Below, one piece after another: positions 6,263 to 55,043 of a stretch of 64,000 nt of DNA (the stretch's first letter is position 1; each line of letters opens with the position of its first letter). This DNA is from Acidobacteriota bacterium. Lineage in GTDB: Bacteria; Acidobacteriota; Vicinamibacteria; Marinacidobacterales; Marinacidobacteraceae. Position numbers and translations under genes: made by a program. The DNA is taken from positions 29,579 through 93,578 of the forward strand of contig JAJEFG010000107.1 of the NCBI GenBank assembly GCA_022820545.1. The letters run 5' to 3'. A model generated the notes under the pieces. The model was given only the letters and a program-made list of their open reading frames with translations. It was not told where the DNA came from and did no database searches.

Positions 6263-6338
6263 GGGGTGCATTCTCCGAGGCGGATACGCCAGAACCTGAC
6301 ACCCCCGGCGCCCGGGAAGCGGGCGAGGGCGGCGGGCC

Positions 6339-6557
6339 TCATTCCGGAGTCCTCCGGCCGGGCCGGGAGTGCGGCGGCTGCCGGAAAAGAGGACCGCGGC
6401 GGAAGATGTAGGCGGCGACCGCGTCGCGAACCACCCAGGCGAGCGACACCCGCTTCTCGGCGGCGATCCTCCGGAGTTCCTCGTAGTCGGCGGCGTCGAA
6501 GGAGACGGATACCCGGCGGACGGTGTCCCGGGAGCTATCCCTGCCGCTTTGCACCAT
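6339..6557 (-). CDS. Ribbon-helix-helix (CopG/antitoxin-like) DNA-binding protein, orphan
   Basis: This is the C-terminal 72 aa of ORF 6339..7121(-), starting at MVQSGRD. The RHH signature is VRRVSVSFDAADYEELRRIAAEKRVSLAWVVRDAVAAYI. No toxin gene is adjacent; rmuC starts 76 nt downstream. Confidence 0.65.
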   Translation of the reverse strand: MVQSGRDSSRDTVRRVSVSFDAADYEELRRIAAEKRVSLAWVVRDAVAAYIFRRGPLFRQPPHSRPGRRTPE

Positions 6558-6559
6558 GA

Positions 6560-6576
6560 TGCACCATTGTGGTGCA
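6560..6576. promoter_or_regulatory. Palindrome TGCACCA-TTG-TGGTGCA (plus direct GCACCAT repeat) immediately 5' of the RHH gene start; putative autoregulatory operator
   Basis: A perfect 7-bp inverted repeat with a 3-bp spacer abuts the start codon at 6557. GCACCAT occurs twice (6551-6557 and 6561-6567). Confidence 0.45.
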
Positions 6577-6696
6577 GACTGGGAGCCCCAGTCAAACGGG
6601 AACCCTGAACCGGTGACGCGGCGCTCCCGGGCGGTGACGCCGGGCGGGGAAGTGGTGTGCCCACCCGGACCGGTCGTCAGTGGGGGTAACGGGGAG

Positions 6697-6750
6697 CGGT
6701 TTCGACCGCCTCTCGGCGGTCGATGCCGGCCGGAGGCCGGCGCTCCGAGC
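6697..6750 (+). repeat. REP-like GC-rich palindromic element, family A copy 1
   Basis: GGTTTCGACCGCC-TCTC-GGCGGTCGA is a 5' hairpin. It is followed by the core GATGCCGGCCGGAGGCCGGCGCTCCGAGC, which contains the hairpin GCCGGCC-GGA-GGCCGGC. The same core recurs at 33162, 46911 and, inverted, at 42103. Confidence 0.7.
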
Positions 6751-7695: not shown

Positions 7696-7764
7696 GGATG
7701 GGTCCTCGCGCTTTATCCTAATCGGGGGTGGGCGTTCGCTCCGGCCCGGAGGCCCCCGCCACTC

Positions 7765-10644: not shown

Positions 10645-10678
10645 AAGCCCCGGCGCCGGGCTGGCATACTCCGCCGCC

Positions 10679-11797: not shown

Positions 11798-11813
11798 CCC
11801 AGGCAGAGCGCCC

Positions 11814-12947: not shown

Positions 12948-12960
12948 GAAAGGGCTCTCA

Positions 12961-14094: not shown

Positions 14095-14138
14095 GCGACC
14101 GGCCCTGACTCCCTCACGGACGGAGACCCGCCCTGACT

Positions 14139-14429
14139 CTAAGTGGATGGAGTCGCGGCACTTGCGTCGGAACGGGAGTCATTGAGCCGGGGCCAGGGGA
14201 CCTGGAAAGTCGTCACTTCCGGAATCGGAAGCAATCCGGCCTCTCGCAACACTTCTTCCACCGTTCCCATTTCCTGACACGTTTCCAGGAACAGTTCCAC
14301 TGCTTCCCGCAGGTTCTTTTCCGCTTCGTCCCTCGTTGCGCCCTGGGAGGTCACGTCCAGATCAGGACACCAGCCGATCCACTGATTCCGTTCCCGTTGG
14401 AGATTCGCCCTCAGGGTGATCGCCGCCAT
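14139..14429 (-). CDS. HicB-like (UPF0150/HicB N-terminal domain) protein, no HicA partner found
   Basis: ORF 14139..14477(-); the likely start is the internal Met MAAITLRANLQRERNQWIGWCPDLDVTSQGATRDEAEKNLREAVELFLE, which gives the HicB N-domain pattern. Confidence 0.5.
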   Translation of the reverse strand: MAAITLRANLQRERNQWIGWCPDLDVTSQGATRDEAEKNLREAVELFLETCQEMGTVEEVLREAGLLPIPEVTTFQVPWPRLNDSRSDASAATPST

Positions 14430-14562
14430 GTCTCTCAGACGGTGCGGGCCTAGCCTAGTGCACGGATCACGTCGCAACGTCCCGCACGCCGGCCTTGCTG
14501 CCCCAACGGCGCCTGGCGCCGCGTCGGTCGTCCGAGTCAGCGTTGGAGATTCTCATGTCTGA

Positions 14563-15246
14563 TCAACGCCGGGGCCGCCGGCCCACGGCAACCACCATCG
14601 GGCCTTCGGTCCACGCCAGTTCCGCCTCGAAACCGGCGGCGCCCATCGCAGCGGCTTCCATCTCCTGCGGGAAATAGGTGTCCTCTTCCTGCCATTCGGC
14701 GAAGTGCCGGTAGGCGCGCTCCTCCGGAATGCCGCACGACATCAGGTGGGCGGCCCAGGCACGCCACACGGGCTCCCGGGCGCTGGGCTCCGCCGGCATC
14801 GTCGCGTCGGCGTTCACGAAGACGCCGCCCGGACGGAGACAGTCGTGGATCCGGGCGAAGAGCCGCCGCTTTTCGCCCATCGTCGGGACGTGGTGGAGCG
14901 CGAGCGAAGCGGCGACCGCGTCGGCCTCCGGGAGGGGATCGTCGAAGGACGCCTCGCGGAAGCGCGTCCGGCGCCCGTACCCGTCGAGGCGTTCCCGCGC
15001 CACCGCGAGCATGTCGGGGTCCACGTCGATCAACTCGACCGTCGCGCCCGGCGCCGCACGCAGGATGGCTTCGGCAAGGGCGCCGGTGCCGCCGCCGAGG
15101 TCCAGCACGTGTTCCGGCGCCACCCGCGCGATCTCGGCGGCGGCCGCTTCGAGCATCGCCTCGTAGCCGGGGATGAAGCGCCGGATCGCCTCGTCGTAGG
15201 CCTCGACCTCGACGCGCAGGTGACGTCTGACGGAGTGACGGGACAT
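14563..15246 (-). CDS. Class I SAM-dependent methyltransferase
   Basis: This is the C-terminal 227 aa of ORF 14563..15606(-), starting MSRHSVRRHL. The SAM motif is VLDLGGGTGALAEAI, with an acidic loop ELIDVD. Confidence 0.7.
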   Translation of the reverse strand: MSRHSVRRHLRVEVEAYDEAIRRFIPGYEAMLEAAAAEIARVAPEHVLDLGGGTGALAEAILRAAPGATVELIDVDPDMLAVARERLDGYGRRTRFREASFDDPLPEADAVAASLALHHVPTMGEKRRLFARIHDCLRPGGVFVNADATMPAEPSAREPVWRAWAAHLMSCGIPEERAYRHFAEWQEEDTYFPQEMEAAAMGAAGFEAELAWTEGPMVVAVGRRPRR

Positions 15247-39228: not shown

Positions 39229-39708
39229 ATGAGAGAGACCACGCTCACGGTCAACGGCGAGACGCACACGCTGGACGTCGATCCGGCGACGCCGCTGCTC
39301 TACGTCCTCCGGAACGACCTCGGACTGCGGGGGCCGCGCTTCGGCTGCGGCCTAGCCCAGTGCGGGACGTGCACGGTGCTGATGGACGGACGCCCGATCC
39401 GTTCGTGCATCCTGCCGGTCTCCCGGACCCGGGGCGGGATCACGACCCTGGAGGGACTGCCCGAGGACGGAAAGCTGCACCCCGTCCAGCAGGCCTGGAT
39501 CGAAGAGCAGGTGCCCCAGTGCGGGTTCTGCCAGAACGGCCAGATCCTCACCGCCGCGGCCATGCTCGACGCCAACCCGAACCCGTCCGACGACGAGATC
39601 CGCCGGGGCATGAACCCGATTCTCTGCCGCTGCATGACCTACTTCCGGATCCAGTCCGCGGTGAAACGCGCCGCGGCGGCGATGGCCGAAACCGAGGCAG
39701 ACCGATGA
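39229..39708 (+). CDS. (2Fe-2S)-binding small subunit of xanthine-dehydrogenase-family molybdo-oxidoreductase (IorA-like)
   Basis: Cysteine clusters CGLAQCGTC and CGFCQNG...CRC are present. Confidence 0.85.
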   Translation: MRETTLTVNGETHTLDVDPATPLLYVLRNDLGLRGPRFGCGLAQCGTCTVLMDGRPIRSCILPVSRTRGGITTLEGLPEDGKLHPVQQAWIEEQVPQCGFCQNGQILTAAAMLDANPNPSDDEIRRGMNPILCRCMTYFRIQSAVKRAAAAMAETEADR

Positions 39709-42086
39709 GCGGCGGGCGCGACATGAACGCGATCGACCGCGCCCTCGAACGCTGGGAGGGGACCGCTTCCCGGCGCGACTTCCTCAAGTCCTCGGGCCTC
39801 TTCGTCTTCGGTCTGAGCGCCCCGGGCGCGGCCGGCGAAGGCCTCGCGGCCCAGCCCGCGGCCGACGGCCCCTATCCCGATCCCGACTTCCTCCAGCTCG
39901 ACTCGTGGCTCGTCGTCCACGAGGACGGCAGCGCGACCTTCTACGTCGGCAAGACCGACGGCGGCCAGGGCACCGGGACCGCCACCCGGCAGATGATGTG
40001 CGACGAGCTCGACCTCGCCTTCGACCGGGCCACGGTGGTCATGGGACGCACCGATCTGACCGTGGACCAGGGCGGCTCGGGCGGCTCGGACGCGATCGAG
40101 CGCGACGCCATGGTCGGACGCCGCATCGCGGCGGAGGCCCGGCGGGTGCTGCTGGAAATGGCGTCCGAGCGCTTCGGCGCGCCGGTGGAGGAGTTGCGCG
40201 TGAGCGAGGGGGTGATCTCGCTCGGGAGCGATCCCTCGCGGACGGTCACCTACGGGGAGCTGATCGGCGGGCGGCGCTTCGACGTCGCGCTGACGGGCGC
40301 GAACATCAACCAGACCGCCGGCGTCGCGAGCATCAAGCCGGTCCAGGACCTGAAGCTCGTCGGCCAGTCGATCCCGCGCTACGACATCCCCGCCAAGGTG
40401 GACGGATCGTTCGAGTGGGCCGTCGACGTGAACCTCCCGGGGATGGTCCACGCCCGGAACGTGCGCCCGCCGTTCGCCGGGGCGACTCTGACCGGCGTCG
40501 ACGAGTCCTCGGTGAGCGGGATGCCCGGCTTCCTCCGGGTGGTGCGCGAGGGGAACTACGTCGCGGTGGTGTGCGAGCGCGAGGAGCAGGCGATCGAGGC
40601 CGCGGAGGGCCTGGCGGTCACCTGGGAGAAGCCCGCCACGGCGCCGTTCCCGGCATCGGACGACCTCTTCGACTACCTGCGGAGCGCGGAGCCGGAGCCG
40701 AACCTGGGCGGACGCTGGGCCGCGGAGGTCGAGGGCGATCCCGACGCGGCGCTGGCGAGCGCCGCGACCGTCGTCGAAGCCGCCTACGACGTTCCCTTCC
40801 AGGGACATACGGCGATCGGGCCCGCCCACGCGCTGGCCGATCCTTCGGACGGCCAGATGACGATCTACACGAACGACATGAAGCCGTACAGCCACCGGAC
40901 CGGGATCGCCGAATTCCTGGGGCTCGCGCCGGAGCGGGTGCGGGTGATCTGGATGGAGGGCCCGCAGCTCTACGGGCGCACGGCGGCGGACGACGCGGGT
41001 TTCGAGGCCGCCTACCTTGCGAAGGAACTGGGGCGCCCCGTTCGGGTCCAGTGGATGAGGCACGAGGAGACGGCGTGGGACACCAAGGGTCCCGCCTTCG
41101 CCATCGACCTCCGCGGGGGACTCGATGCGGACGGCAACCTGGTCGCGCTGGACTATCGGGGCCGGATCGCCAACTACGCGCACGTCGGCTACAACCAGGC
41201 CCGGACGGTGCTCATCGCGCAACTGATGGGCCTCCGGCCCGAGCGGCCGGCGCCCGGGGGCGCGGGCGGGCCGGACGCCATGTACCACGTCCCGAACCGG
41301 CGCGAGGAGACGCGCGCGGTCCGCCTCCCGCTGGTCTTCGAGACGCCGCTCCGCACCGGGAATCTCCGCGACCCGAACGGCCCGCAGATCACGTTCGCCG
41401 CGGAGTCGTTCATCGACGAGCTGGCGGCCGCCGCGGACGCCGATCCGGTCGAGTTCCGGCTGCGCCTCCTGCGGCGCGCCACGGACGACGACGAGATCTT
41501 CCGGCGGGCGCGCTCGGTCGCGGTGGTCGAAGCGGCCGCGAAGGCCTACGGCTGGGACGCCCGGCCGTCACCCGCGAGGGTGGGCAGCGGACGGCTGCTC
41601 ACCGGACGGGGCATCGCCTACGCCTACCGCGCCCGCACCACCGTCGCCGTGATCGCCGAGGTCGAGGTGGACCGCGAGACCGGGCAGGTGCGGGTCCCCC
41701 GGATGGTCTGCGCCCACGACTGCGGCCTCGTGATCAACCCGGACGGCCTCGAGAACACCATCCAGGGGAACCTCCTGCACGGCATCAGCCGGACCCTCTA
41801 CGAAGAGGTCCGGTTCGACACCGAGAAGGTCACGAGCGTCGACTGGCGCACCCACCCGACCCTCACCCACCGGGACACCCCCGAACGCATCGACGTCGTG
41901 GTGGTGAACGGCGACCCCAACCCCGACCGCCCGGACCTCCCCCCCTACGGCGCCGGCGAACCCTCCCACAAGCCCGTCCCCGCAGCCATCGCCAACGCCG
42001 TCCACGACGCCACCGGCGTCCGCATCCGCCGCCTCCCGCTCCGCCCCGAACGCGTCCTCGCGGAACTGGAAGCGGCGGGCGTCTAA
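39705..42086 (+). CDS. Molybdopterin-binding large subunit (IorB/aldehyde oxidoreductase-like) with Tat signal
   Basis: The ATGA overlaps the small subunit. The Tat motif is SRRDFLKSSGLFVFGLSAP. The protein is 793 aa with an MPT-binding domain. Confidence 0.85.
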   Translation: MSGGRDMNAIDRALERWEGTASRRDFLKSSGLFVFGLSAPGAAGEGLAAQPAADGPYPDPDFLQLDSWLVVHEDGSATFYVGKTDGGQGTGTATRQMMCDELDLAFDRATVVMGRTDLTVDQGGSGGSDAIERDAMVGRRIAAEARRVLLEMASERFGAPVEELRVSEGVISLGSDPSRTVTYGELIGGRRFDVALTGANINQTAGVASIKPVQDLKLVGQSIPRYDIPAKVDGSFEWAVDVNLPGMVHARNVRPPFAGATLTGVDESSVSGMPGFLRVVREGNYVAVVCEREEQAIEAAEGLAVTWEKPATAPFPASDDLFDYLRSAEPEPNLGGRWAAEVEGDPDAALASAATVVEAAYDVPFQGHTAIGPAHALADPSDGQMTIYTNDMKPYSHRTGIAEFLGLAPERVRVIWMEGPQLYGRTAADDAGFEAAYLAKELGRPVRVQWMRHEETAWDTKGPAFAIDLRGGLDADGNLVALDYRGRIANYAHVGYNQARTVLIAQLMGLRPERPAPGGAGGPDAMYHVPNRREETRAVRLPLVFETPLRTGNLRDPNGPQITFAAESFIDELAAAADADPVEFRLRLLRRATDDDEIFRRARSVAVVEAAAKAYGWDARPSPARVGSGRLLTGRGIAYAYRARTTVAVIAEVEVDRETGQVRVPRMVCAHDCGLVINPDGLENTIQGNLLHGISRTLYEEVRFDTEKVTSVDWRTHPTLTHRDTPERIDVVVVNGDPNPDRPDLPPYGAGEPSHKPVPAAIANAVHDATGVRIRRLPLRPERVLAELEAAGV

Positions 42087-43590: not shown

Positions 43591-44039
43591 CGACTTTCCA
43601 CCCCGGCCCGGATCTCGATGCGCCGGGCCCCGTTCGCTTCCCGCACGAGACGCACCCGCGTCGCGTCGGCGCGCCGGTAGGGTCCGAGCCGTTCCGGCCA
43701 CTCGACGATCACCACCGCGTCTTCTTCCTCCATCTCTTCGATGCCGAGTTCCCGGAGCTCCTCGGGGCGCTCGATCCGGTAAAGGTCCAGGTGGTACACC
43801 GGACGCGCGCCCTCTCCGTAGCGTGACACGAGCGCGAAGGTCGGACTCGTGACCTGGCGGGGGTCCACGCCGTAGTGCCGCGCGAGTCCCTTGGCGAACA
43901 CGGTCTTGCCGGCGCCCAGGTCCCCTTCCAGGTAGAAGGCCCGGCAGCGGGGTTCGCGGGCCGCGAGCCGGGCGCCCGCTTCGAGCGTGTCCTCCGGGGT
44001 GCGGCTGGCGACGGCGTCCGCCGCCGGCGCGGCCGTCAC
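43587..44039 (-). CDS. tsaE: tRNA t6A37 threonylcarbamoyladenosine biosynthesis protein TsaE
   Basis: The GTG start overlaps the nnr stop (GTGA), with GGGAGG 7 nt upstream. The Walker A motif is GDLGAGKTVFAKGL, followed by SPTFALV. Confidence 0.75.
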   Translation of the reverse strand: MTAAPAADAVASRTPEDTLEAGARLAAREPRCRAFYLEGDLGAGKTVFAKGLARHYGVDPRQVTSPTFALVSRYGEGARPVYHLDLYRIERPEELRELGIEEMEEEDAVVIVEWPERLGPYRRADATRVRLVREANGARRIEIRAGVESR

Positions 44040-45619
44040 CGGGACACCTCCCGGCGCAGCCGGTGCACCGCCTTCCCAAGGTGGGCGGCCACGCCGGATG
44101 CGGTGACCGCATCCTCCCCGCTGCTCTCGCGGGCTTCGCTGCCGGCGAGTCCGTGCAGGAAGACGCCCGCCGAAAGCGCCTCGAGCGGACCCAGGCGGCG
44201 GGCGAGCAGCGCCCCCACGACTCCAGTGAGGACGTCCCCGGACCCGCCCGCGGCGAGTTCGGGCCCCCCGGAGCGGTTCACGAAGACGGCGCCGCGCGGG
44301 TCGGCGATGAGCGTCCCCGGTCCCTTGAGGGCCACCGCGGCCTCGGTCTCCCGGGCGAGGCGCCGGGCCGTTCCCAGCCGGTCCTCCTGAACCTCCGCGC
44401 TGGTCACGCCGAGCAGCCGGGCGGCTTCGCCCGGATGGGGCGTCAGCGCGAGCCCCGGCCGCTGGGCGAGGCGCCCGGCCCGGCCGGCCCAGGCGTTCAG
44501 CCCGTCGGCATCGAGCACGAGCGGCAGCGAGGTGGTGAGGACGATCCGTCGCACCGCCTCCTTCGTTTCCTCTCCGCTGCCGAGGCCGGGCCCGAGCGCG
44601 ATCGCGTCGCCGGCGAACGCCGCGATCTCGGGCACCCCGTCGAGAGACATCTCTCCTTCGCCGGAAGCGGGCAGGGGCAGCCGCATCGCCTCCGGAGGCA
44701 GCTCCGTCAGGCCGTCGGCCGGGCCCGCCACCGTCAGCAGACCGACCCCCGCCGACAAGGCGCCCTGCGCCGCGAGCGCCGCGGCCCCGGGCATGCGCCG
44801 CGACCCCGCGACGAGCAGCAGCCGGCCGAGCTGCCCCTTGTGAACGCCGGGCGCCCGCGCGGGGAAGAACGGCGCCACCCGGCGTTCGTCGTTGGTGCGG
44901 ACCCCCGCGGTGCCGGCGTTCAGCCAGACGCGCGGGATTCCGATCTCCGCGACCCGGATCTCCCCGCAGGCGGCGCTCGCCGGATAGACGAAATGGCAGA
45001 TCTTCGGCGCCGCGAGGGCCACCGTGAGATCGGCGCGGAAGCAGAGGTCCGGCGCCGCCCCCGTGTCGGCGGAAAGGCCGGTCGGAATGTCCACGGCGAT
45101 GCGGACCGCGTCGCGGAACCGCCCGACGTGATCCAGGTCGGCGACCACCCGGGCGGCAAGCCCCCGGAGGGGGCCGGAACTCCCCGTCCCCAGGATCGCG
45201 TCCACGATGACCCCGGGGCGCGGGGCGGTGAGTCCGTCCGGTCCCGTATGGCGCAGCGCCCATTCCCAGGTGGCCTCGTCGGGACAGGGAACCACGTGGA
45301 GCGCGAGCTGCATCGCGGTCTCGTAGTTCGCCTTCGTCTCTCCGGTGAGCCGTTCCGGATCGGCCAGCAACACGGCGGTGGCCCGCAGTCCGCGGGCCGC
45401 GAGCGCCCGAAGCGCCACCAGGCCGTCGCCCCCGTTGCCGCCCCGCCCGCAGAGGATGAGGGTCCGCCGGCCGCCCGCCCCCGACGCGGCGGCGACGACG
45501 TCCGCGACCGCCCGCCCCGCGTTTTCCATCAGGACGCGCGCCGGAACCCCGGCTTCCTCGATGGTGTGGCGGTCCGCTTCGCGCATCTGCTGCGCGGTCA
45601 GCACGTCCATGACGTTCAT
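44036..45619 (-). CDS. nnr: Bifunctional NAD(P)H-hydrate repair enzyme Nnr (epimerase + ADP-dependent dehydratase)
   Basis: 527 aa. The YjeF-N domain carries GRGGNGGDGLV. The C-terminal carbohydrate-kinase domain carries GPGLG and GSGDVLTG. Confidence 0.85.
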   Translation of the reverse strand: MNVMDVLTAQQMREADRHTIEEAGVPARVLMENAGRAVADVVAAASGAGGRRTLILCGRGGNGGDGLVALRALAARGLRATAVLLADPERLTGETKANYETAMQLALHVVPCPDEATWEWALRHTGPDGLTAPRPGVIVDAILGTGSSGPLRGLAARVVADLDHVGRFRDAVRIAVDIPTGLSADTGAAPDLCFRADLTVALAAPKICHFVYPASAACGEIRVAEIGIPRVWLNAGTAGVRTNDERRVAPFFPARAPGVHKGQLGRLLLVAGSRRMPGAAALAAQGALSAGVGLLTVAGPADGLTELPPEAMRLPLPASGEGEMSLDGVPEIAAFAGDAIALGPGLGSGEETKEAVRRIVLTTSLPLVLDADGLNAWAGRAGRLAQRPGLALTPHPGEAARLLGVTSAEVQEDRLGTARRLARETEAAVALKGPGTLIADPRGAVFVNRSGGPELAAGGSGDVLTGVVGALLARRLGPLEALSAGVFLHGLAGSEARESSGEDAVTASGVAAHLGKAVHRLRREVSR

Positions 45620-45663
45620 TGTAGGAAAGGGGCCGGGACGCGCCCCGCGTACCCTTTTCCCCG

Positions 45664-46614
45664 GTGACGCTCTACTTTCCGGAATCGCTCGTCCGCGAAG
45701 CCCTTCCCATGCGGGACGCGCTGGATGCGGTCGAGGCGGTCTTCCGGGAGCTCGGCGAGGGGGGAGCCCAGAACCGGCCCCGGCAGCGGGTCCGGGTCCC
45801 GGGCCGGATGCTGCACACGATGAGCGCCTCGAGTTCCGCGCTCGGGTACCTGGGGCTGAAGACCTACCTGACCTCCCGGGACGCCATGCGCTTTGTCCTC
45901 TTGCTCTTCGACCAGGAGACCGGATCGCTCGCCGCCGTGATGGAAGCCGACGCCCTGGGGCAGATCCGGACCGGCGCCGCCACCGGGGTCGCGGCGGCCT
46001 ACCTGGCGGCGCCGGGCGCGTCCACCGTGGGGATCGTGGGGTGCGGATACCAGGCCGAAACGCAGCTCGAAGCCCTCGCGCTGGTGCGCCCGCTCACCCG
46101 GGTGGAGGCGTTTTGCCGGAATCCGGAACGGCGAGCCCGGTTCGCCGCGAAGATGGCCGGTCGGCTCGGCGTGGAGGTCGTCCCGGCGCCCAGCGGGGAG
46201 GCGGCGGTCCGCGGCAAACCCATCGTGGTCACGGTCACGAATGCCGCGGAGCCGGTGGTCCGGGGCGCGTGGCTCGCTCCGGGCGCGTTCGTGGCGGCGG
46301 CGGGAGGCAACGCGCTCGGACGGCGCGAACTCGATTCGGCGGCGGTGCGTCACGCAAGCCGGATCGTCGTGGACGACCGGGAGCAGGCGCGGATCGAGTG
46401 CGGCGATCTGGCGCCGCTCGTCGCCACCGGGGAGTTGGCATGGGACGACCTGGAGACGATCGGGGAGGTGGTGGCGGCCGGGAAGGGGAGCGCGGCGTCG
46501 GGGCCGGCGCTGTTCGAGTCCCAGGGGATCGCCGCCGAGGACATCGCGGCGGCGGCGGTGGTGTACGAGCGTGCGAAGGCCGAAGCGGCGCCGTTTCCCG
46601 GCAGTGGCGAGTAA
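45664..46614 (+). CDS. Ornithine cyclodeaminase / mu-crystallin family protein
   Basis: GTG start. The N-terminus LVREALPMRDALDAVEAVF is typical of the family, and there is a Rossmann motif GIVGCGYQA. Confidence 0.7.
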   Translation: MTLYFPESLVREALPMRDALDAVEAVFRELGEGGAQNRPRQRVRVPGRMLHTMSASSSALGYLGLKTYLTSRDAMRFVLLLFDQETGSLAAVMEADALGQIRTGAATGVAAAYLAAPGASTVGIVGCGYQAETQLEALALVRPLTRVEAFCRNPERRARFAAKMAGRLGVEVVPAPSGEAAVRGKPIVVTVTNAAEPVVRGAWLAPGAFVAAAGGNALGRRELDSAAVRHASRIVVDDREQARIECGDLAPLVATGELAWDDLETIGEVVAAGKGSAASGPALFESQGIAAEDIAAAAVVYERAKAEAAPFPGSGE

Positions 46615-46631
46615 GCGGATAGAATCGCCCC

Positions 46632-46859
46632 ATGACTTCCTTCCTGTGGGTCCCGGTCCTCCTGGTCGGCCCCTTCGGGGCGACCGAACTCCTCATCATC
46701 CTGGGGATCGTGATCCTCATCTTCGGGGGTTCGCGGCTGCCGCAGCTCGGGAAGGGTCTGGGGGCCGGAATTCGGAACTTCCGGAACTCCATGAAGAGCG
46801 TCACGAACCCGGATGCCGGTTCCGAGGACGATTCCTCCTCCGGCAAGAACGACGACTGA
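46632..46859 (+). CDS. tatA: Twin-arginine translocase subunit TatA/E
   Basis: GATELLIILGIVILIFGGSRLPQLGKGLGAGIRNFR, followed by an acidic tail. Confidence 0.75.
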   Translation: MTSFLWVPVLLVGPFGATELLIILGIVILIFGGSRLPQLGKGLGAGIRNFRNSMKSVTNPDAGSEDDSSSGKNDD

Positions 46860-46910
46860 GCGACTGCCGCCGTCGCGCGGGTAGTCCTTCCGGTCGCCGA
46901 TAGACGGCGT

Positions 46911-46964
46911 GAGTTTCGCCTCGCTGCGCTCGGCGATGCCGGCCGGAGGCCGGCGCTCCGCTAG
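46911..46964 (+). repeat. REP-like element family A copy 3
   Basis: GAGTTTCGCCTCGCTGCGCTCGGCGATGCCGGCCGGAGGCCGGCGCTCCGCTAG. It is nearly identical to the copy at 33162. Confidence 0.7.
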
Positions 46965-48040
46965 ACCACGACCCGCAGTCCGTCGTGGGCGCGCTCGAAG
47001 GCCAGGCCGGCTGCGCCGAGAACGTCGTCGCCGGTGTGTACGAGCAGCACGCGGCGGGCCGTGATCCGGGACGCCGCCTCCTCGAGTTCGCGGTGGGAGG
47101 TATGACCGGGAAGCGCTTCGAGTGACGTGCACTCGTGGATCAGGAGATCCACTCCCGCCGACTCGGAGATCAGTTCGTCGCTGAAGCCGGTGTCGCCCGA
47201 GTAGACGACGGTGCGGCCGCCGAGATCCAGCTTCCACGAGAACGCCCAGGCCTCGGGCTGGTGGCGCGCTGCGAGGGCCCGGGCGGCGCCGCCGCCCAGG
47301 GCGGCCGGCAGGCCGATGGTCTCGCCGGGGAGCGCCTCCGTGATCTCCTCCTCGAAACGGATGGGCAGATCGCGGTAGAGGCATTCCCGGAGCGTCGCGA
47401 GGCGTTCCGGCGCGCCCGGGGGGGAGATCACCCGGAGCGGTTCGGTGCGTCCGCTCCGCATCGCGTCCAGTTCGAGAAACGGAATCCCCCCGTAGTGGTC
47501 CCCGTGGAAGTGGCTCAGCACCACGGCGCCGAGGTCGTCGCTCGTGAGTCCTTCCGCGCGGAGGGCGGCGTGGCAACCCGGCCCGGCGTCCAGCAGGAGT
47601 CCCAGCCGGCTGCCGAGCGTCCGCACGAAGATCGCGGCCTGGCGTTTTCCGCCGGAGCCGAAAGCGTCGCCCGTCCCGAGGAAGCGGACTTCGACCCCCT
47701 CGCCGGCGCTCTCCGGCCCGGCCGGGCGGGGACCCCGCGCCGCCGCCTCCTGACAGCTCCCGCAGACGAAGGGCCGCCGCCCGTCACCCTCCGCCATCGG
47801 GTCGAGTGCGCGGTCGCACCGCCGGCAGCACTCCCGCCGGGGCGCCGGAAGCGCGGCCGCATGGCGTTCGAACAGTTCCGCGACGAAGGCCACGATGCGT
47901 TCGCGGTCCCCCGCGGCGAAGAGCCGGGAGTCCTCGAGCGGGTCCTCGTCCGGCCGCGGCCGGGCGATCAGCCGGACCTCGACGGTCCGGCCGGAACCGT
48001 CGTCCTCGTCGGGGTCGGCGAGGATCCGGATCTCGAGCAA
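46961..48040 (-). CDS. MBL-fold metallo-hydrolase with N-terminal CxxC..CxxC zinc-ribbon extension
   Basis: This is the C-terminal part of ORF 46961..48340(-). A probable TTG start lies 13 nt after the larE-like stop. The zinc-ribbon cysteines are CCRRCD...VCGSC, and the metal-binding motif is HFHGDHYGG. Confidence 0.55.
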   Translation of the reverse strand: MLEIRILADPDEDDGSGRTVEVRLIARPRPDEDPLEDSRLFAAGDRERIVAFVAELFERHAAALPAPRRECCRRCDRALDPMAEGDGRRPFVCGSCQEAAARGPRPAGPESAGEGVEVRFLGTGDAFGSGGKRQAAIFVRTLGSRLGLLLDAGPGCHAALRAEGLTSDDLGAVVLSHFHGDHYGGIPFLELDAMRSGRTEPLRVISPPGAPERLATLRECLYRDLPIRFEEEITEALPGETIGLPAALGGGAARALAARHQPEAWAFSWKLDLGGRTVVYSGDTGFSDELISESAGVDLLIHECTSLEALPGHTSHRELEEAASRITARRVLLVHTGDDVLGAAGLAFERAHDGLRVVV

Positions 48041-48053
48041 TAGGCTGCTAGTG

Positions 48054-48893
48054 CTAGTGGGCGCCGGTCGACAGGTAGGCCAGATCGCGGTCCGGGTCGA
48101 AGGGGGCGGCGAGCCCGGCAGGCCGGTAGCCGCGGAGGTCCACCGCCACCTGCCGGTATCCGACGCCCAGCAGGCGTTCCGCGAGGCGGTCTCCGACCTC
48201 CGGGCTGAGGGCGCGGGCGATCTGGGCCGCCGGCAGCTCGATGCGGGCGAGGTCCCCGTGGTGGCGGACCCGGAAGGCGGAGAACCCGAACTCCCGGAGC
48301 GCCGCTTCCCCGGCCTCCACCCGGCCCAGGACCCCCGCATCGATCTGGATCATCGCGGGAACGCGGGAGGCGAGGCACGCGGAAGCCGGTTCCTCGGCCA
48401 CCGGCAGTCCCAACTCGCGCGCCAGCGCCCGGATGGCCGCCTTGCCGACCCCGGCCTCGAGGAACGGCGAGCGGACGCCGTAGAGCCCCGCCGCGCGCCG
48501 TCCCGGCCGGATGTCCCCCACGTCGTCGGAGTTCGTGCCGTCGAGCACGGCCGCGAAACCGCGCGCGTCGGCGACCTCCCGCAGCAGACGGTAGAGCTCG
48601 TTCTTGCAGTGAAAACAGCGATCCGGACCGTTCCGGCGGTAGTCGGCGGACGCCAGCTCATCCGTCGCGAGCCACTCGTGCGGCATGGGGTGCGCGTGGA
48701 GAACCGACTCCACGAGGGCCCGCTGGTGACCGGAGAGGCTGGCGCTCACCCCGGTGACCGCCAGGCTCCGCTCCCCGAGCGCGAGGTGGGACAGGACCGC
48801 CAGCGTCGCGCTGTCCACGCCGCCGCTGAGCGCCACGACCGCCGAGCCCTCCGCCTCGAGGGCGGCCAGCAGGGAGTCCCGGGCCTCAGGCAC
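48054..48893 (-). CDS. LarE-like PP-loop ATP pyrophosphatase (TIGR00268-type, putative sacrificial sulfur transferase)
   Basis: The PP-loop is SGGVDSATLAV. A LarE-type Cys motif is PASACLASRVP. The GTG start has GGAGG 7 nt upstream and overlaps the moaC stop. Confidence 0.65.
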   Translation of the reverse strand: MPEARDSLLAALEAEGSAVVALSGGVDSATLAVLSHLALGERSLAVTGVSASLSGHQRALVESVLHAHPMPHEWLATDELASADYRRNGPDRCFHCKNELYRLLREVADARGFAAVLDGTNSDDVGDIRPGRRAAGLYGVRSPFLEAGVGKAAIRALARELGLPVAEEPASACLASRVPAMIQIDAGVLGRVEAGEAALREFGFSAFRVRHHGDLARIELPAAQIARALSPEVGDRLAERLLGVGYRQVAVDLRGYRPAGLAAPFDPDRDLAYLSTGAH

Positions 48894-49389
48894 CGTCCGC
48901 CCTCCAGTCGCCGCTCGCCCCACCGCTCTTCTCGAGGAGGCGGACCGGGCCGATCACCATCGCCCGGTCGGCGGCCTTCAGCATGTCGTAGACCGTGAGG
49001 GCGGCCACCGAAGCCGCGGTGAGCGCCTCCATTTCCGCCCCGGTGGAGGCCCGGCACCGGATCCGGGACACGATGCGGATCCCGGTCTCCTCGAATGCCG
49101 CCGAGACCTCGGCATGGTCGAGGGGCAGGGGATGACACAGCGGGATCAGGGCCGCGCAGGACTTCGCCGCCTGGATCCCGGCGAGGCGCGCCGTGTCCAG
49201 CACGCTCCCCTTGGGAGCGTTTCCGCGGCGCGCCAGCTCGAGCGCCGGTTCCGAGACCCGCACGAAGGCTTCGGCGGCGGCTTCGCGCGAGGTGACGGGC
49301 TTGGCCCCCACGTCCACCATGCGCGCGTTTCCCCCGGAGTCCACATGGCTGAGGGTCGCCGGGGTCGCCGGGCTACCGCCGGAAGTCAT
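48886..49389 (-). CDS. moaC: Cyclic pyranopterin monophosphate synthase MoaC
   Basis: The N-terminus is LSHVDSGGNARMVDVGAKPVT. The ATGA overlaps moeA. Confidence 0.85.
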   Translation of the reverse strand: MTSGGSPATPATLSHVDSGGNARMVDVGAKPVTSREAAAEAFVRVSEPALELARRGNAPKGSVLDTARLAGIQAAKSCAALIPLCHPLPLDHAEVSAAFEETGIRIVSRIRCRASTGAEMEALTAASVAALTVYDMLKAADRAMVIGPVRLLEKSGGASGDWRADGA

Positions 49390-50651
49390 CGCCGGGGATC
49401 ATGCCATCCGGCCCCGGCGTCCGGAAACCCGGGGAGCGGCTGCGCTGCGACGCTCGCTCCGGCGGGGACCCTCTCCACGTCTTCCGGCACGATCACGAGG
49501 GCATTGGCGAGCGCCACCGCCGCGATGTCGCCCGACCCCTGGGAGCGGATCGGCTGCGCCGTCAGGGTCCCGTCGTCCGCGACTCCCACCCGCGCGGGCA
49601 GGAAGGCGCGCCGCGGTCCGCGCGCCGTGACCGGGGCGAGCAGGCGCACCGAGGGGCGCGGCGGCCTCGGATCGGCGATGCCCTGCATTGCCTCGAGGGC
49701 CGGCCGGGCGAGCACCTCGAAGGTGGTGAGCGCCGAAACGGGGTTGCCGGGCAGGCCGAAGACGAGGACCGGAGGGGCGTCGCCGGTGATCCCGAAGACG
49801 AAGGGTTTGCCGGGCCGGATGGCGACCGCAGTCACGAGGAGCCGGACCCCGGCCCGCTCGAGCACGGGTTCGACGTAGTCATACCGGCCCATCGACACGC
49901 CGCCGCTGATGAAGAGCACGTCCGCCTCGAGGCCGGAAGCGACCTTCGCGGCGAGGTCGTCGGGATCGTCGGCGGCGAAGCCCAGCCGCCGGACCGGAAG
50001 CCCCAGCGCGCGGCAGCGGGCGGCGATCAGGTGGCTGTTGGCGTCGCGGATCTCGGCGGGGCGCGGCCTGGCGGTCCGCGGATGCCGGAGTTCGTCGCCG
50101 GTCGAGAACACCGCGATCCGGGGCCGCCGGGCGACTTCCACCCGGACCTTGCCGACGGTGGCGAGGAGCCCCACGGCCGCCGGCGAGACCCGGATGCCGA
50201 CCTCGAGAAGCTTCGCGCCTCTCCGGACCTCGGCGCCGCGGGCGGTGACCCGGTTTCCCGGCTCGATGGGGGCCGGGGTCCTCCCGGGGGCCGGCCAGAC
50301 GACGCAGTCCCCGTCGCGCACGGTGTCCTCCACCATGATCGCGGCGTCCGCCCCTTCCGGCAGCGGAGCGCCCGTCATGATGGCCGCCGCCTCCCCCGGG
50401 CCCACCCGGACCTTCGGCATCGTCCCGGCGGGGATCTGGTCGACGACGCGCAGCCGGCCGCCGCCGGCAAGGCAGGCGGCGCGGACGGCGTAACCGTCCA
50501 CCGCCGAGCGGTGGAAGGGGGGCAGGTCCCGGTCCGCGAACACGCCCTCCCGAAGCACCCGGCCGCGGGCCGCTTCGAGCCCGACCGTCTCGGCCGGCAG
50601 CCGCGGAGACCGCTCGAGGATTCGGCGGAGCGCCTCCTCGACCGGAATCAA
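49386..50651 (-). CDS. moeA: Molybdopterin molybdotransferase MoeA
   Basis: The N-terminus is MIPVEEALRRILE. The MoeA_N, MoCF_biosynth and MoeA_C arrangement is present. Confidence 0.8.
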   Translation of the reverse strand: MIPVEEALRRILERSPRLPAETVGLEAARGRVLREGVFADRDLPPFHRSAVDGYAVRAACLAGGGRLRVVDQIPAGTMPKVRVGPGEAAAIMTGAPLPEGADAAIMVEDTVRDGDCVVWPAPGRTPAPIEPGNRVTARGAEVRRGAKLLEVGIRVSPAAVGLLATVGKVRVEVARRPRIAVFSTGDELRHPRTARPRPAEIRDANSHLIAARCRALGLPVRRLGFAADDPDDLAAKVASGLEADVLFISGGVSMGRYDYVEPVLERAGVRLLVTAVAIRPGKPFVFGITGDAPPVLVFGLPGNPVSALTTFEVLARPALEAMQGIADPRPPRPSVRLLAPVTARGPRRAFLPARVGVADDGTLTAQPIRSQGSGDIAAVALANALVIVPEDVERVPAGASVAAQPLPGFPDAGAGWHDPRR

Positions 50652-50672
50652 GGACGTTTCGGGGCCTGGCCC

Positions 50673-51020
50673 TCAGGCGTCCGTGGTGAAGCTGGCGACC
50701 GCCTGATCCTCGGTCTCGAACACCTCGAAGAGCGGCAGCACCCGGGCGATGTTCATCACGTGGACGACGCGCTCGCGCGGATGAAGCGCCTTGAGGGCGC
50801 CGCCCGCGCGGGCGACCCGCCGGGCGCACGCGACGAGTTCGCCGAGGCCCGCGCTGTCGATCGCGCTGACCCCGCTGAGATCGACGACGATGCGGGTGCG
50901 GCCCGAATCGAGGAGCACGTCCACGGCCTCCCGGAGCTCCTGGTCACCGTGGCCATCCACCAGGCGGCCGTTCAATTGCAGCAGCGAGACGCCGCCCCGC
51001 TCCCTCAGGTCGAGTTGCAT
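50673..51020 (-). CDS. STAS-domain anti-sigma-factor antagonist (SpoIIAA/RsbV-like)
   Basis: 115 aa. The motif is IVVDLSGVSAIDSAGLGELV. It lies 4 nt downstream of the ppiD-like gene. Confidence 0.7.
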   Translation of the reverse strand: MQLDLRERGGVSLLQLNGRLVDGHGDQELREAVDVLLDSGRTRIVVDLSGVSAIDSAGLGELVACARRVARAGGALKALHPRERVVHVMNIARVLPLFEVFETEDQAVASFTTDA

Positions 51021-51024
51021 CGCT

Positions 51025-52926
51025 CTAACCGATCAGGTCGTTGAGGGCCTGCCGGTCGATGCGGATCTCGTAGCGCTCGCCCGCGGCCCCGACGAAGGCG
51101 GCCCAGATCCGTTGTTTCTTCTCTTCGGCCATCTGCGCCCGGAAGGGTTCCTTCTGCTCCTCGAACGTCGTCTCGGCAAAGCCCTCTTTTCCGTTGATCC
51201 GGACGACGGCGTAGCCGCGGTCCCCCTCGAGGGGGCCGACGACGTCTCCGACCTCGGCGCCGAAGACCGTCTCCTCGTGGTCGGGGAGCATTCCGGCGAT
51301 CCCCAGCGGACTGCCGCGGAACCAGCGCTCGAGGGGCGTGGGATCGGTTTCGGCGGTCCGGCCCCCGGCGACGAGGTCCCGGAGCGCCTGACCGGCCTCC
51401 TCGGCGAGGGAACGGGCCCGCTCTTCCTCGAGTCCGGCGATCACCTGCTCGCGAATGTCCTCGAATTCGGGAACGTGGGGCGGCCGTTCCTCGAGGACTT
51501 CCACGAAGCCGTAGCCGGTGGGGAGCCGGACCGGACCGCCCACCGCGCCGATCTCGAGTTCGAAAGCGAGCGCGGCGAGCCCGGCGGAACCGGCCCCGGC
51601 CACCGGGTCCCCGGCGGAGAAGTAGTCCGATTCCTGGGGGATCAGCAGCGGGTGGTCACGCGTCAGCTCGTCCAGCGAATCAGCGCCGTCCACGAGTCCT
51701 TCGAGTTCGATGGCCCGCTCGGTCAGGAGATCGCCGGCCTTCTCCTGCCGCAGGCGGCTCTCGATCTCACCCTCCACCTCGCTCAGCTCCCGGGTCTCCG
51801 CGGGTTGCCGGCTGTCGAGCCGCACCACGTGCCAGCCGTAGTCGGTGCGGACCGGATCGCTGATCTCGCCCGGCATCATGTTGAAGACCGCTTCGGAGAA
51901 CTCGGGCACCATCTCTTCCGGCCCGAAGACGCCGAGGGCTCCCCCCGCTTCCCGGGTCGCTTCGTCAGCGGAATAGGTCCGCGCGAGTTCGGCGAAGTCC
52001 TCGCCCGCCCGGGCCCGCTCGGCGAGACGGGCCGCGAGGGTGCGGGTGGCGTCCTCCTCGGCCTCGGTCTCCGCCTGCAGCAGGATGTGGCTGGCTTCCG
52101 CCTGCTCGCCCATCTGGTACTGGAAGAGGTTGCGGTTGTAGTAGCGCTGGATTTCGCGCTGCCGGACCGAGACTTCCTCGGCGAGGATCTGCTCCGACAG
52201 TGTCAGGTACCGGATCCGCCGCTGTTCCGGCACCTCGAACGCCGCCGGATCGGCCTCGTAGCGCTCGCGCGCTTCCGCCTCGGCGACCTCCACGTCGCCG
52301 CGCCGGCTATCGGTCGTCACGAACCAGACGTCGAGCGAGGCGCTCTCGTTGCGGCGCCGGTATTCCTCCCGCAGTTCCAGGTCGGACACGTGCGGCGACT
52401 CCGTGATCAGCGCCCGGAGCTTCTCGGTCATCAGGTCGGACCGGATGGAATCCTCGAAGTCCCGCGGGTTGAGCCGGGCGGCGCGCAGCATGGCGAGATA
52501 GGCGTCCCGGCCGATGAAGACGCCGTTGTCCTGAAAGGTGGGAGAGGTGGCGATACTGGTTCCGACTTCGGTGTTGGTGACCTCGATGCCGAGACGTTCG
52601 GCCTCCCGGACGAGAACCCGGCTCCGCACCAGTTCGCCCACGACCTGGTCCGGAATACCGAGTTGCCGCGCCAGGGCGGGAGAGAAGTCACCGCCGCTCT
52701 GTTCCTGGTACATGCGCGCCACGTTCCGGTAGCGGTCCAGGAAGGTCGATGCCGGGATCGCTTCGCCGTCCACCCAGGCGACGCCGCGGCGCATCGCGGC
52801 GGTGGCCGGATCTCCCATGAAATCGGGGAAATAAAGGGCGACGAACGCCAGGATGACCAGCCCGAGCAGGCCGGCGCCGAGGAACCAGCCGACGGACCGG
52901 CGGTTGCGGAAATACTCGAGGATCAT
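51025..52926 (-). CDS. Periplasmic chaperone/peptidyl-prolyl isomerase PpiD-like (parvulin domain)
   Basis: N-terminal TM anchor, SurA-like chaperone region, and a parvulin motif ASHILL. Confidence 0.7.
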   Translation of the reverse strand: MILEYFRNRRSVGWFLGAGLLGLVILAFVALYFPDFMGDPATAAMRRGVAWVDGEAIPASTFLDRYRNVARMYQEQSGGDFSPALARQLGIPDQVVGELVRSRVLVREAERLGIEVTNTEVGTSIATSPTFQDNGVFIGRDAYLAMLRAARLNPRDFEDSIRSDLMTEKLRALITESPHVSDLELREEYRRRNESASLDVWFVTTDSRRGDVEVAEAEARERYEADPAAFEVPEQRRIRYLTLSEQILAEEVSVRQREIQRYYNRNLFQYQMGEQAEASHILLQAETEAEEDATRTLAARLAERARAGEDFAELARTYSADEATREAGGALGVFGPEEMVPEFSEAVFNMMPGEISDPVRTDYGWHVVRLDSRQPAETRELSEVEGEIESRLRQEKAGDLLTERAIELEGLVDGADSLDELTRDHPLLIPQESDYFSAGDPVAGAGSAGLAALAFELEIGAVGGPVRLPTGYGFVEVLEERPPHVPEFEDIREQVIAGLEEERARSLAEEAGQALRDLVAGGRTAETDPTPLERWFRGSPLGIAGMLPDHEETVFGAEVGDVVGPLEGDRGYAVVRINGKEGFAETTFEEQKEPFRAQMAEEKKQRIWAAFVGAAGERYEIRIDRQALNDLIG

Positions 52927-53093
52927 GGCAACCGGCCATGGTACCGCCGCGGAGTCCCGGCCGGCAAACCCGGACAGGAAAACGCGCGGGTTGAGACTGT
53001 CACGATCGCGGTTTCACTGGTACTCTCTCGCCGCATTTCCCGTCCCGGTCTTCCTGAAATCCCCGACACAGTGCCGCGACCCGGCCTCGCCTG

Positions 53094-54122
53094 ATGCTCA
53101 AATATCTCCTCAGTCTCTTCTCCGTCGATCTCGCGGTAGATCTCGGGACCGCCAACACCCTCATCTATACCCAGGATTCGGGAATCATCCTCCGCGAGCC
53201 GTCCGTGGTGGCCATGAACACGGTCACCAAACGGGTGGAGGCGGTCGGGGCGGAGGCCTACGACATGGTCGGCAAGACCCCCGACCACATCAAGGCGATC
53301 CGTCCGATGCAGGACGGGGTGATCGCCGACTTCGAGGCGGCGGAGCGGATGATCAGCCACTTCGTCCAGAAGGCGCTGGGGAGGCGGCGCTGGGCGGCTC
53401 CCCGGATGGTGGTCGGCGTGCCGCTCAGGATCACCCCCGTGGAGCGGCGCGCGGTGCGCGACAGCGTGCTCCGGGCGCGGGCCAGCGAGGTGTTCCTGGT
53501 CCAGCAGCCGATCGCGGCCGCCATCGGCGCGGGACTCGACGTCACGACCCCCATCGGCTGCTGCGTGGTGGACATCGGCGGGGGCACGACCGACATCGCG
53601 GTCATCTCGCTGTCGGGCATCGCCGCCGGCACCTCGGTGCGCGCCGCGGGCGACATGTTCACCCAGGGGATCATCGAACACCTGCGGCGGGCGCACGGAC
53701 TGCTCGTCGGCGAGCGGACGGGCGAGCGGATCAAGATGGCCCTCGGCAGCGCCCGGCCGGGAATGCAGGCGCGGAGCATGGAGATCCGCGGCCGGGACCT
53801 TTCCCGACTGTCGCCGGCCACGCTGACGGTGACCGATCAGGACATCCGGGAGGGTTTGAGCGGTCCGCTGCACCAGCTCCTCACCGCGGTGGCGAACGTG
53901 CTCGAAAAGGTGGAACCGGAGCTGTCCGCCGACCTCGTGGAGAACGGGATTCTGCTGACGGGCGGGGGCGCTCTCCTCGAAGGGCTGCCGGAGCTGCTCG
54001 CCGACGAGACGAACCTGGCGGTCAAGGTGGCGGAGCACCCGCTCGACTGCGTCGTGAACGGCGCCGGCGTCATGCTGGAGCGCATGGACCTGCTCCAGCA
54101 GGTGTCCCGGCACGACGTGTGA
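53094..54122 (+). CDS. mreB: Rod shape-determining protein MreB
   Basis: The N-terminus is MLKYLLSLFSVDLAVDLGTANTLIY. It has an actin-like ATPase fold. Confidence 0.9.
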   Translation: MLKYLLSLFSVDLAVDLGTANTLIYTQDSGIILREPSVVAMNTVTKRVEAVGAEAYDMVGKTPDHIKAIRPMQDGVIADFEAAERMISHFVQKALGRRRWAAPRMVVGVPLRITPVERRAVRDSVLRARASEVFLVQQPIAAAIGAGLDVTTPIGCCVVDIGGGTTDIAVISLSGIAAGTSVRAAGDMFTQGIIEHLRRAHGLLVGERTGERIKMALGSARPGMQARSMEIRGRDLSRLSPATLTVTDQDIREGLSGPLHQLLTAVANVLEKVEPELSADLVENGILLTGGGALLEGLPELLADETNLAVKVAEHPLDCVVNGAGVMLERMDLLQQVSRHDV

Positions 54123-54194
54123 GCCGGCCGGGGTAACCTAGTGGGGACCCTGCGATCGGCAGGGCCGACGAGAGGGAGAGGTACGAGTTAGCCG

Positions 54195-55043
54195 GTGCCC
54201 GGGAAACGCGGCCACGGAATCCTTCTGGGGATCGTGTTGGCCGCGAACTTCCTGGGACTGACCTTTCAGGTGCGGAGCGGGATCAGCTTTCCGATCCGCG
54301 ACGGCCTGGCCGCGGTGTTCGGCGGGGGCCAGAGCCTGGTGCTGGGCTCCACCCGCGCGGTTTCGTCGTGGGTGGAGACCGTGGGGGAGGCGCACGAGAT
54401 GCGGCTCGCCCGCGACGAGTTGCGTGACCGGGTAGCCCGGCTCGAGTGGGAGCTGACCGTCCAGCGGGGCATGCTCGAGCGGGCGCGCGGGTTCACGGAC
54501 CTGGACGCCGCGGCGATGGACCTCGGCGAGCCGGTTTCCGGCGAGGTCGTGGGGGTCAGCGCATCGCCGCTGGATCGGACCGTCACCGTGAACCGGGGCA
54601 GCCGGCACGGCATCGAGCGGGACGCTCCGGTGATGGCGGCAAGCGGACTCGCGGGCCGGATCGTGGCGGTGGGGCCCGGGGTCAGCCAGGTCGAGCTGCT
54701 GTCGGCCTCCACCGCGGCCGTCGCCGTCATCACCTCCGGGAGCCGCACCCGCGGAGTGGTCCGGTCCGCCGCCGGGGAGGACGGCGCGAGCGGCTACCGG
54801 CTCCATTTCGTGCCCGTCGGGCAGACGATCGCCCTCGGGGAGGAGGTGATCTCGAGCGGGCTCGACCAGCTCTATCCGAAGGGGCTCCTGGTCGGACACG
54901 TGTCGGCGGTCCACGAGGGCGCCGGCCTGCTCCTCGAAATCGAGGTCGAGCCGGCCGTGGACTTCGACACCCTCGAACGGGTGTTCGTGCTGCCGCGCCG
55001 GGACGATTCCGGGATGGCGCCGGAGCCTGATGCGGCGCCATGA
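54195..55043 (+). CDS. mreC: Rod shape-determining protein MreC
   Basis: GTG start, TM anchor, coiled-coil, then a beta-domain. Confidence 0.8.
   Translation: MPGKRGHGILLGIVLAANFLGLTFQVRSGISFPIRDGLAAVFGGGQSLVLGSTRAVSSWVETVGEAHEMRLARDELRDRVARLEWELTVQRGMLERARGFTDLDAAAMDLGEPVSGEVVGVSASPLDRTVTVNRGSRHGIERDAPVMAASGLAGRIVAVGPGVSQVELLSASTAAVAVITSGSRTRGVVRSAAGEDGASGYRLHFVPVGQTIALGEEVISSGLDQLYPKGLLVGHVSAVHEGAGLLLEIEVEPAVDFDTLERVFVLPRRDDSGMAPEPDAAP

Follow-up and report, generated by a model that had tools for sequence, protein, structure and literature searches.

LarE, a PP-loop ATP-dependent sulfur insertase of nickel-pincer cofactor synthesis, is described in two forms. The enzyme of L. plantarum (Lp; PDB 5UDQ) is sacrificial, lacks a CxxC motif and has Cys176, whereas the CXXC-C cysteines of T. 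maritima LarE hold a [4Fe-4S] cluster, which makes the enzyme catalytic rather than sacrificial; its distal cysteine is shifted by one residue relative to Lp Cys176 (PMC9283937). The phosphate of the substrate, the mononucleotide of pyridinium-3,5-biscarboxylic acid (P2CMN), is bound in LarE by Ser180, Arg212 and Arg214 (PMC9283937). Here we analyse a larE gene that overlaps the molybdenum cofactor (Moco) gene moaC, within a window (the whole stretch of DNA studied, 64 kb long, with 66-75% G+C) from a marine or sponge-associated Vicinamibacteria (Acidobacteriota) genome. The gene is followed by one for a metallo-beta-lactamase (MBL)-fold protein whose N-terminal domain we call N96. An earlier note, made from the sequence of the window, had taken this placement to hint that Moco synthesis includes an uncharacterised step of sulfur transfer or adenylation. 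With a probability of roughly 60%, we instead favour an ordinary, vertically inherited [4Fe-4S]-type LarE that makes the nickel-pincer precursor and came to lie behind moaC through genome compaction specific to the lineage. The genes and domains concerned are as follows.

49386-50651, minus strand: moeA-like molybdopterin molybdotransferase gene, 421 amino acids (aa), TTG start (Pfam MoeA_N, MoCF_biosynth, MoeA_C)
48886-49389, minus strand: moaC, cyclic pyranopterin monophosphate synthase gene, 167 aa (TIGR00581, Pfam MoaC)
48901-48905, minus strand: Shine-Dalgarno-like GGAGG in the last part of moaC, 7 nt upstream of the GTG of larE (read from the sequence)
48054-48893, minus strand: larE, PP-loop ATP-dependent sulfur insertase gene, predicted [4Fe-4S] (CxxC...C) class, 279 aa (TIGR00268; PDB matches 5UDQ and 8CNZ)
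46961-48040, minus strand: zinc-ribbon/MBL gene (N96-MBL), 359 aa (Lactamase_B_2; open reading frame, ORF)
47696-48040, minus strand: N96, the domain made up of the first ~115 residues of the MBL protein (predicted model; CxxC...CxxC zinc ribbon)
46961-47695, minus strand: MBL-fold domain of the ElaC/RNase Z/PhnP/Apyc1 phosphodiesterase branch, with HFHGDH (Lactamase_B_2; Foldseek)

The PP-loop protein is a member of the LarE family. It matches the LarE model TIGR00268 with 257.3 bits against an equivalog cutoff of 150, over model positions 3-255 of 259, and the ThiI, QueC, MnmA and NadE models match it at the generic PP-loop level only, so that the grouping with ThiI or QueC that the earlier note had allowed for can be set aside. 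LarE and generic PP-loop matches were its only ones; no homology to the known Moco families (MoaA-E, MoeA/B, MogA, MobA, MOSC and XdhC) was detected. The protein carries SGGVDS, CFHC and PASACLASRVP, and aligns over its full length (residues 6-259, E 4e-34) with L. plantarum LarE, with which it shares the fold family, the PP-loop and the phosphate-binding residues: the equivalents of Lp Ser180, Arg212 and Arg214 are present in LASR (as its S-R) and in FRVRHH (as its R-V-R).

The cysteines place the protein in the other subclass. The position of Lp Cys176 is occupied by alanine and the local cysteine stands one residue later, at the cysteine position of the [4Fe-4S] LarE of M. maripaludis (8CNZ); the CFHC of the window protein lies on the CYNC of 8CNZ. 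Hence the 'single-Cys' descriptor of the earlier note does not hold: with CFHC present, the protein has a CxxC...C triad whose last cysteine is shifted by one residue relative to Lp Cys176. With alanine at that position and CFHC in place, the protein falls outside the sacrificial single-Cys subclass and, as judged from its residues, is a LarE of the CxxC...C [4Fe-4S] subclass, with cluster binding predicted. Such an enzyme is expected to be catalytic, not single-turnover, and the label 'sacrificial sulfur transferase' is probably mistaken here, because the protein carries the cysteine triad of the catalytic [4Fe-4S] type. Like the [4Fe-4S] LarEs of T. maritima (PMC9283937) and M. maripaludis, the window protein combines SGGxDS, CxxC and a distal cysteine at aligned positions and the Ser/Arg/Arg set with a length of ~270-280 aa and a TIGR00268 score above cutoff. 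Unlike theirs, its gene is not found with larB, larC or larA but is wedged between moaC and the N96-MBL gene, and the protein is only ~25-30% identical to the solved LarEs; the activity assigned to it is predicted.

This active site shows no sign of drift. In an alignment of 84 LarEs (17 from the close clade and 13 from the sister clade defined below, 26 linked to larB/larC and 28 others), SGGxDS, CFHC, C-L-x-S-R and R-V-R are invariant across all four groups. A neighbour-joining tree places the Vicinamibacteria/Marinacidobacterales LarEs in one clade, sister to the LarEs of Terriglobia/Bryobacterales, some of which sit in larE-larC-larB clusters. By these residues and this branching, the window LarE bears no mark of a diverged paralogue.

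We then compared the surroundings of larE in 80 LarE loci from species-representative genomes, and several more found by exact-protein look-up, which were searched with the window proteins. In one Vicinamibacteria clade (the close clade, 19 loci), LarE is 59-91% identical to that of the window, with a span of 59-100% for the clade as a whole, and the moaC-larE contact is kept; outside the ten closest genomes, the two genes are separated by estimated gaps of 10-105 nt or have overlapping gene calls. These loci keep a whole block of about 15 unrelated genes, running from mreDCB through surA-STAS-moeA-moaC-larE-N96MBL and tatA-OCD (OCD denoting an ornithine cyclodeaminase/mu-crystallin family gene) to nnr-tsaE-sulfatase. 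The conserved contact therefore reflects general synteny and gives no independent support for a link. Among sister-clade loci, whose LarE is 49-53% identical, moeA-moaC lies 2.7-7.7 kb upstream of larE, and the interval is filled by a penicillin-amidase gene (770-850 aa) and a 60-aa LysW-like zinc-ribbon gene, joined in L018 by a 1425-aa gene on the other strand. Among 55 loci from other lineages, neither moaC nor moeA was found within 10 kb of larE in any (0/55), and larB (AIRC), larC (Ni_insertion) and/or a larA-like gene (Lar_N) adjoin larE in 26. Conservation of the adjacency in relatives, the check that the earlier note had set for its own idea, thus holds within the close clade, is lost at the first deeper split and fails in the other lineages. 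This distribution suggests that the moaC-larE adjacency is a lineage-specific juxtaposition in a conserved block of housekeeping genes, an accident of local gene order.

The arrangement of the four genes stands as the earlier note had drawn it, coordinates and junctions included. moeA and moaC overlap by 4 nt in a common ATGA; the larE start GTG (48893-48891) precedes the moaC stop TGA (48888-48886), giving the 8-nt overlap, with GGAGG ahead of the GTG; and the larE stop TAG (48056-48054) is followed 13 nt downstream by the TTG start of the MBL gene (48040-48038). A separate gene call on a Logan contig of identical sequence (L001) gave the same starts and products of 421, 167, 279 and 359 aa. 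The motifs that had been read by eye (SGGVDS, PASACLASRVP, HFHGDH and the CxxC..CxxC ribbon) are all present, and profile matches agree with the gene identities proposed for them (MoeA, MoaC, LarE family and an MBL protein with an N-terminal zinc ribbon). The overlap probably brings co-transcription and translational coupling of larE with moaC. The operon is packed as claimed but longer than claimed, since surA/ppiD-like and STAS genes precede moeA in a co-directional minus-strand string (surA/ppiD-like, STAS, moeA, moaC, larE, N96-MBL). The flanking genes are as follows.

51025-52926, minus strand: PpiD/SurA-like periplasmic chaperone gene, heading the co-directional string (ORF; Pfam SurA_N_2/SurA_N_3/Rotamase on the identical product in contig L001)
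50673-51020, minus strand: STAS-domain gene of the anti-sigma-factor antagonist type (Pfam STAS/STAS_2; ORF)
46632-46859, plus strand: tatA, 75 aa, convergent with the MBL gene (ORF; Pfam TatA_B_E on its syntenic counterparts in L083, L084 and L092)
45664-46614, plus strand: OCD-family gene, 316 aa, a convergent neighbour outside the operon (Pfam OCD_Mu_crystall on syntenic genes)

Gaps of 4 nt (surA-like to STAS) and 21 nt (STAS to moeA) separate the leading genes of the string, and tatA starts 17 nt past the OCD-family gene. A scan of 45500-53200 gave no sigma-70-like promoter and a single terminator-like site, at chance level; no Moco riboswitch or any other Rfam match was found in 44000-54500.

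One element does travel with larE. N96 is defined by the motif IEIRI...DPLEDSR-FA-GD followed by CxxC...CxxC (in the window CRRC, 17 residues, CGSC), and its predicted model shows a helix, three beta strands and a zinc ribbon of the CxxC...CxxC kind. Close-clade genomes have it fused to the MBL domain, with its start 5-17 nt after larE; as a free-standing ORF of 96-99 aa in the sister clade, it begins between -67 and +2 nt relative to the stop of larE. Across all Vicinamibacteria/Marinacidobacterales loci, larE and N96 are thus spaced by -67 to +17 nt, with rearrangement on both flanks. N96 had no Pfam or NCBIfam match and no fold match. An exhaustive search of 1.84 billion representative proteins found six clusters of homologues only, all confined to this lineage; a word-indexed homologue search returned no match, although the fused proteins are in the database searched. 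N96 may be an accessory factor of LarE.

The MBL domain is less faithful to larE. It is absent in L018 and lies ~1.5 kb from N96 in L023-L025 and L028. Membership of the MBL superfamily is clear (Pfam Lactamase_B_2, 73 bits against a cutoff of 27), and residues H177, H179, D181, H182, H260, D283 and H335 are invariant in 49 homologues. RNase Z/ElaC models (TIGR02651) score 79-83 bits against cutoffs of 252-293 and align to the N-terminal half only, so the protein fails all curated family cutoffs for RNase Z-type models; its fold is closest to the ElaC/RNase Z branch. The predicted model of the domain is of high confidence, and its best Foldseek matches are YhfI (6KNS), a B. anthracis ElaC homologue (1ZKP), Brucella proteins (3QH8/3MD7), Apyc1 and RNase Z. 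With the short ElaC/RNase Z-like MBLs (6KNS, 1ZKP, 3QH8/3MD7, Apyc1 7U2R and PhnP 3G1P) it shares HxHxDH, the downstream His/Asp ligands and a ~245-aa core, at Foldseek E values of 1e-16 to 1e-18 and target-normalised TM-scores of 0.74-0.82; it differs from them in its ~20% identity and in its unique N-terminal N96 zinc ribbon. The Brucella neighbour was solved with AMP/GMP bound. A link of such MBL proteins to LarE beyond the order was considered and rejected: three homologues from other phyla (37-43% identical) have unrelated neighbours and no LarE. On one JGI metagenome contig (L088), larC (611-1819, minus strand) lies ~4 kb from a 37%-identical MBL homologue (6001-6747, plus strand). This proximity is probably a coincidence: contig L089 carries an identical MBL protein without larC.

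Two further neighbours bear on what larE might serve. The 60-aa LysW-like gene lies directly upstream of larE in 13 of 13 sister-clade loci (L016-L025, L028, L067 and L086; for example L086:869-1051); the window and the close clade lack it. Its product has CxxC...CxxC and an acidic tail that ends in EWKDS, EWRDN or GGEW, and matches TIGR01206 and NF041070 weakly (29-30 bits against cutoffs of 53-75). As in the LysW/ArgW carriers, a 60-aa CxxC...CxxC ribbon is combined with an acidic tail holding an E-W motif, but the sister-clade gene adjoins larE rather than lysX-type ligases. The tail of LysW itself reads EDWGE, unlike the EWKDS/EWRDN of the sister-clade protein. The sister clade would in this way pair a putative LysW-type carrier with a carboxylate-adenylating sulfur transferase.

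The second neighbour, the OCD-family gene, is two genes from larE in the window. All NCBIfam OCD-family matches of its product are below cutoff; the closest PDB matches are archaeal alanine dehydrogenase (1OMO) and a P2C reductase (6T3E), and none of its PDB sequence matches is labelled as an OCD dependent on NPAD, the nickel-pincer adenine dinucleotide (Desguin 2025, as cited in PMC13524815). The gene is convergent and not co-transcribed with larE; most sister-clade loci lack it within 10 kb, and no homologue lies near larE in the 55 other-lineage loci. In L093, a complete relative, a Mu-like prophage (10050-14936; GemA, Mor and MuB_C domains) lies just past tatA, at the usual OCD/nnr site, and has displaced the OCD gene.

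The Moco genes themselves look canonical. moaC passes TIGR00581 (182 bits against a cutoff of 141.5) and matches Pfam MoaC with 168 bits; moeA has all three expected domains above cutoff (Pfam MoeA_N 141 bits, MoCF_biosynth 98 bits and MoeA_C 62 bits). The two resemble the MoaC and MoeA of the known pathway in these matches and in their ATGA coupling, and nothing in them is unusual except that moeA falls below the NCBIfam equivalog cutoffs, with about equal scores for MoeA (292 against 440) and Glp (312 against 475). The slightly higher score belongs to the Glp 'gephyrin-like divisome protein' model, and the gene is near an mreBCD-PBP2-rodA cluster for cell shape; its ATGA junction with moaC speaks for MoeA. 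About 5 kb away, at 39229-42086 on the plus strand, the window encodes a molybdoenzyme of the xanthine dehydrogenase (XDH)/aldehyde-oxidase family, composed of a small [2Fe-2S] subunit (39229-39708) and a large, Moco-binding one that ends at 42086. Ordinary Moco synthesis is therefore needed, and this enzyme is a likely client of the Moco genes. Its large subunit carries a twin-arginine-like signal, RRDFLKSSG. No further Moco genes were found in the examined parts of the window.

By homology with the characterized [4Fe-4S] enzymes, the favoured course of events would be as follows. Cys-x-x-Cys and the PASAC cysteine would hold a [4Fe-4S] cluster, and sulfide borne on its free iron would replace AMP; the exchange would be made twice to give the bis-thiocarboxylate precursor of the nickel-pincer cofactor, with no cysteine sacrificed. 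moeA and moaC would keep their usual jobs in Moco synthesis, for instance for the XDH-family enzyme, and N96, fused here to an ElaC-like nucleotide phosphodiesterase, may assist LarE. The moaC-larE overlap, as we read it, does not indicate a role for LarE in Moco synthesis. Several observations weigh against this account. The ten closest genomes all keep an overlap of exactly 8 nt, with the GGAGG inside moaC, which implies real co-expression with the Moco genes, and even in the sister clade moeA-moaC is co-oriented with larE and no more than 3-8 kb away. A tblastn search with 12 reference proteins from the lar operons of other lineages found no larB, larC or larA, either across the 64 kb of the window or in any of the 15-20 kb Vicinamibacteria loci. 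N96, the only gene that always accompanies larE in the order, has no place in the known nickel-pincer pathway, whether taken alone or together with the MBL or the LysW-like gene. On the third of these points, dispersed lar genes are documented in Haloferax volcanii (HVO_0197, HVO_2381 and HVO_0190; PMC8305020) and about half of the other-lineage LarE loci also have no local lar partners, so a lone larE is not unusual. At a distance of ~40 kb from larE, an ORF on the plus strand (6487-8901) includes a class-V aminotransferase domain with a cysteine-desulfurase-like fold; it could encode a sulfur donor or be unrelated.

The idea that a LarE homologue was recruited to Moco synthesis, whether for adenylation or thiolation of a pterin, for a thio-modified molybdopterin or for sulfur delivery independent of MoaD/MoeB, draws on the same conserved 8-nt overlap with its internal GGAGG, on an adjacency kept down to 59% LarE identity, on the persistence of moeA-moaC in the sister-clade neighbourhood and on the XDH-family enzyme encoded nearby. 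We consider it very unlikely. Inserted unrelated genes break the direct contact in the sister clade, and Moco genes are absent near larE in the other lineages; the surA-like and STAS genes are packed as tightly, which makes tight packing no sign of common function. In addition, the P2CMN-specific residues are all retained with no divergence from larB/larC-linked LarEs, the locus has no Moco riboswitch or other RNA element in the interval scanned, and full-text literature searches gave no paper linking LarE to Moco. The novel step that the earlier note proposed is thus left unsupported, given a clade-limited adjacency and a conserved P2CMN site. Nor do we lend much weight to an orphan LarE, in genomes devoid of larB and larC, that thiolates an unrelated small metabolite or RNA. 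The lack of lar partners in 64 kb and in every related locus is compatible with it, as are the partnerless LarE loci of other lineages. This reading is nevertheless highly doubtful, given the documented dispersal of lar genes (PMC8305020), the strict conservation of the P2CMN phosphate-binding residues and vertical inheritance alongside larB/larC-linked orthologues.

A richer alternative, in which LarE, N96 and the ElaC-like MBL, joined in the sister clade by the LysW-like protein, act as a module peculiar to the lineage that makes or processes a non-standard thiocarboxylated product, with the MBL providing a phosphodiesterase step, we regard as unlikely. It would account for the fixed larE-N96 spacing between rearranged flanks, for an orphan domain confined to the lineage, for the LysW-like gene upstream of larE in 13 sister-clade loci and for the lack of local larB and larC; the structural neighbours of the MBL domain are nucleotide phosphodiesterases, some with AMP or GMP bound. 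Against it, the MBL portion is missing or displaced in five sister-clade loci and its homologues outside the order do not adjoin LarE, the window lacks the LysW-like gene, and no divergence is seen at the LarE active site. Candidate products of such a module would be a dinucleotide nickel-pincer cofactor for the neighbouring OCD-family enzyme, or a thiocarboxylate on another carboxylate substrate. The former agrees with the presence of an OCD-family gene, two genes from larE both in the window and in close relatives, and with an NPAD-dependent ornithine cyclodeaminase that was reportedly found with LarE as search anchor (Desguin 2025, as cited in PMC13524815); the convergent orientation of the OCD gene, its absence near larE in most sister-clade loci and all 55 other-lineage loci, and its displacement by a prophage in L093 do not fit. 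Stronger still would be the claim that Vicinamibacteria lack the standard larB/larC and that LarE, N96 and the phosphodiesterase, with the LysW-like carrier in the sister clade, form an undescribed thiocarboxylate-forming module co-expressed with the Moco genes, whose product could be a variant dinucleotide nickel-pincer cofactor for the nearby OCD-family enzyme or a protein- or metabolite-bound thiocarboxylate. This we judge a long shot. A vertically inherited [4Fe-4S]-type LarE in a compacted block remains our preferred explanation.

Away from the locus, the window holds two tandem DUF819 membrane-protein paralogues (11763-14094, plus strand) that are 73% identical over 390 aa. An inverted duplicate at ~11.5 kb and ~23 kb, suggested by ORF statistics, was discarded after blastn showed no repeat.

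The main value of these results is one of caution: in this compact, strongly syntenic genome, overlapping genes do not imply common function. Were a Moco link real, one of the most thoroughly studied cofactor pathways would gain a step, but the evidence points the other way. Gene neighbourhood is a means by which new users of the nickel-pincer cofactor (AKR-type NphT and NPAD-dependent cyclodeaminases) are being found. N96, coupled to larE throughout an order of Acidobacteriota, is a cheap and testable candidate accessory factor.

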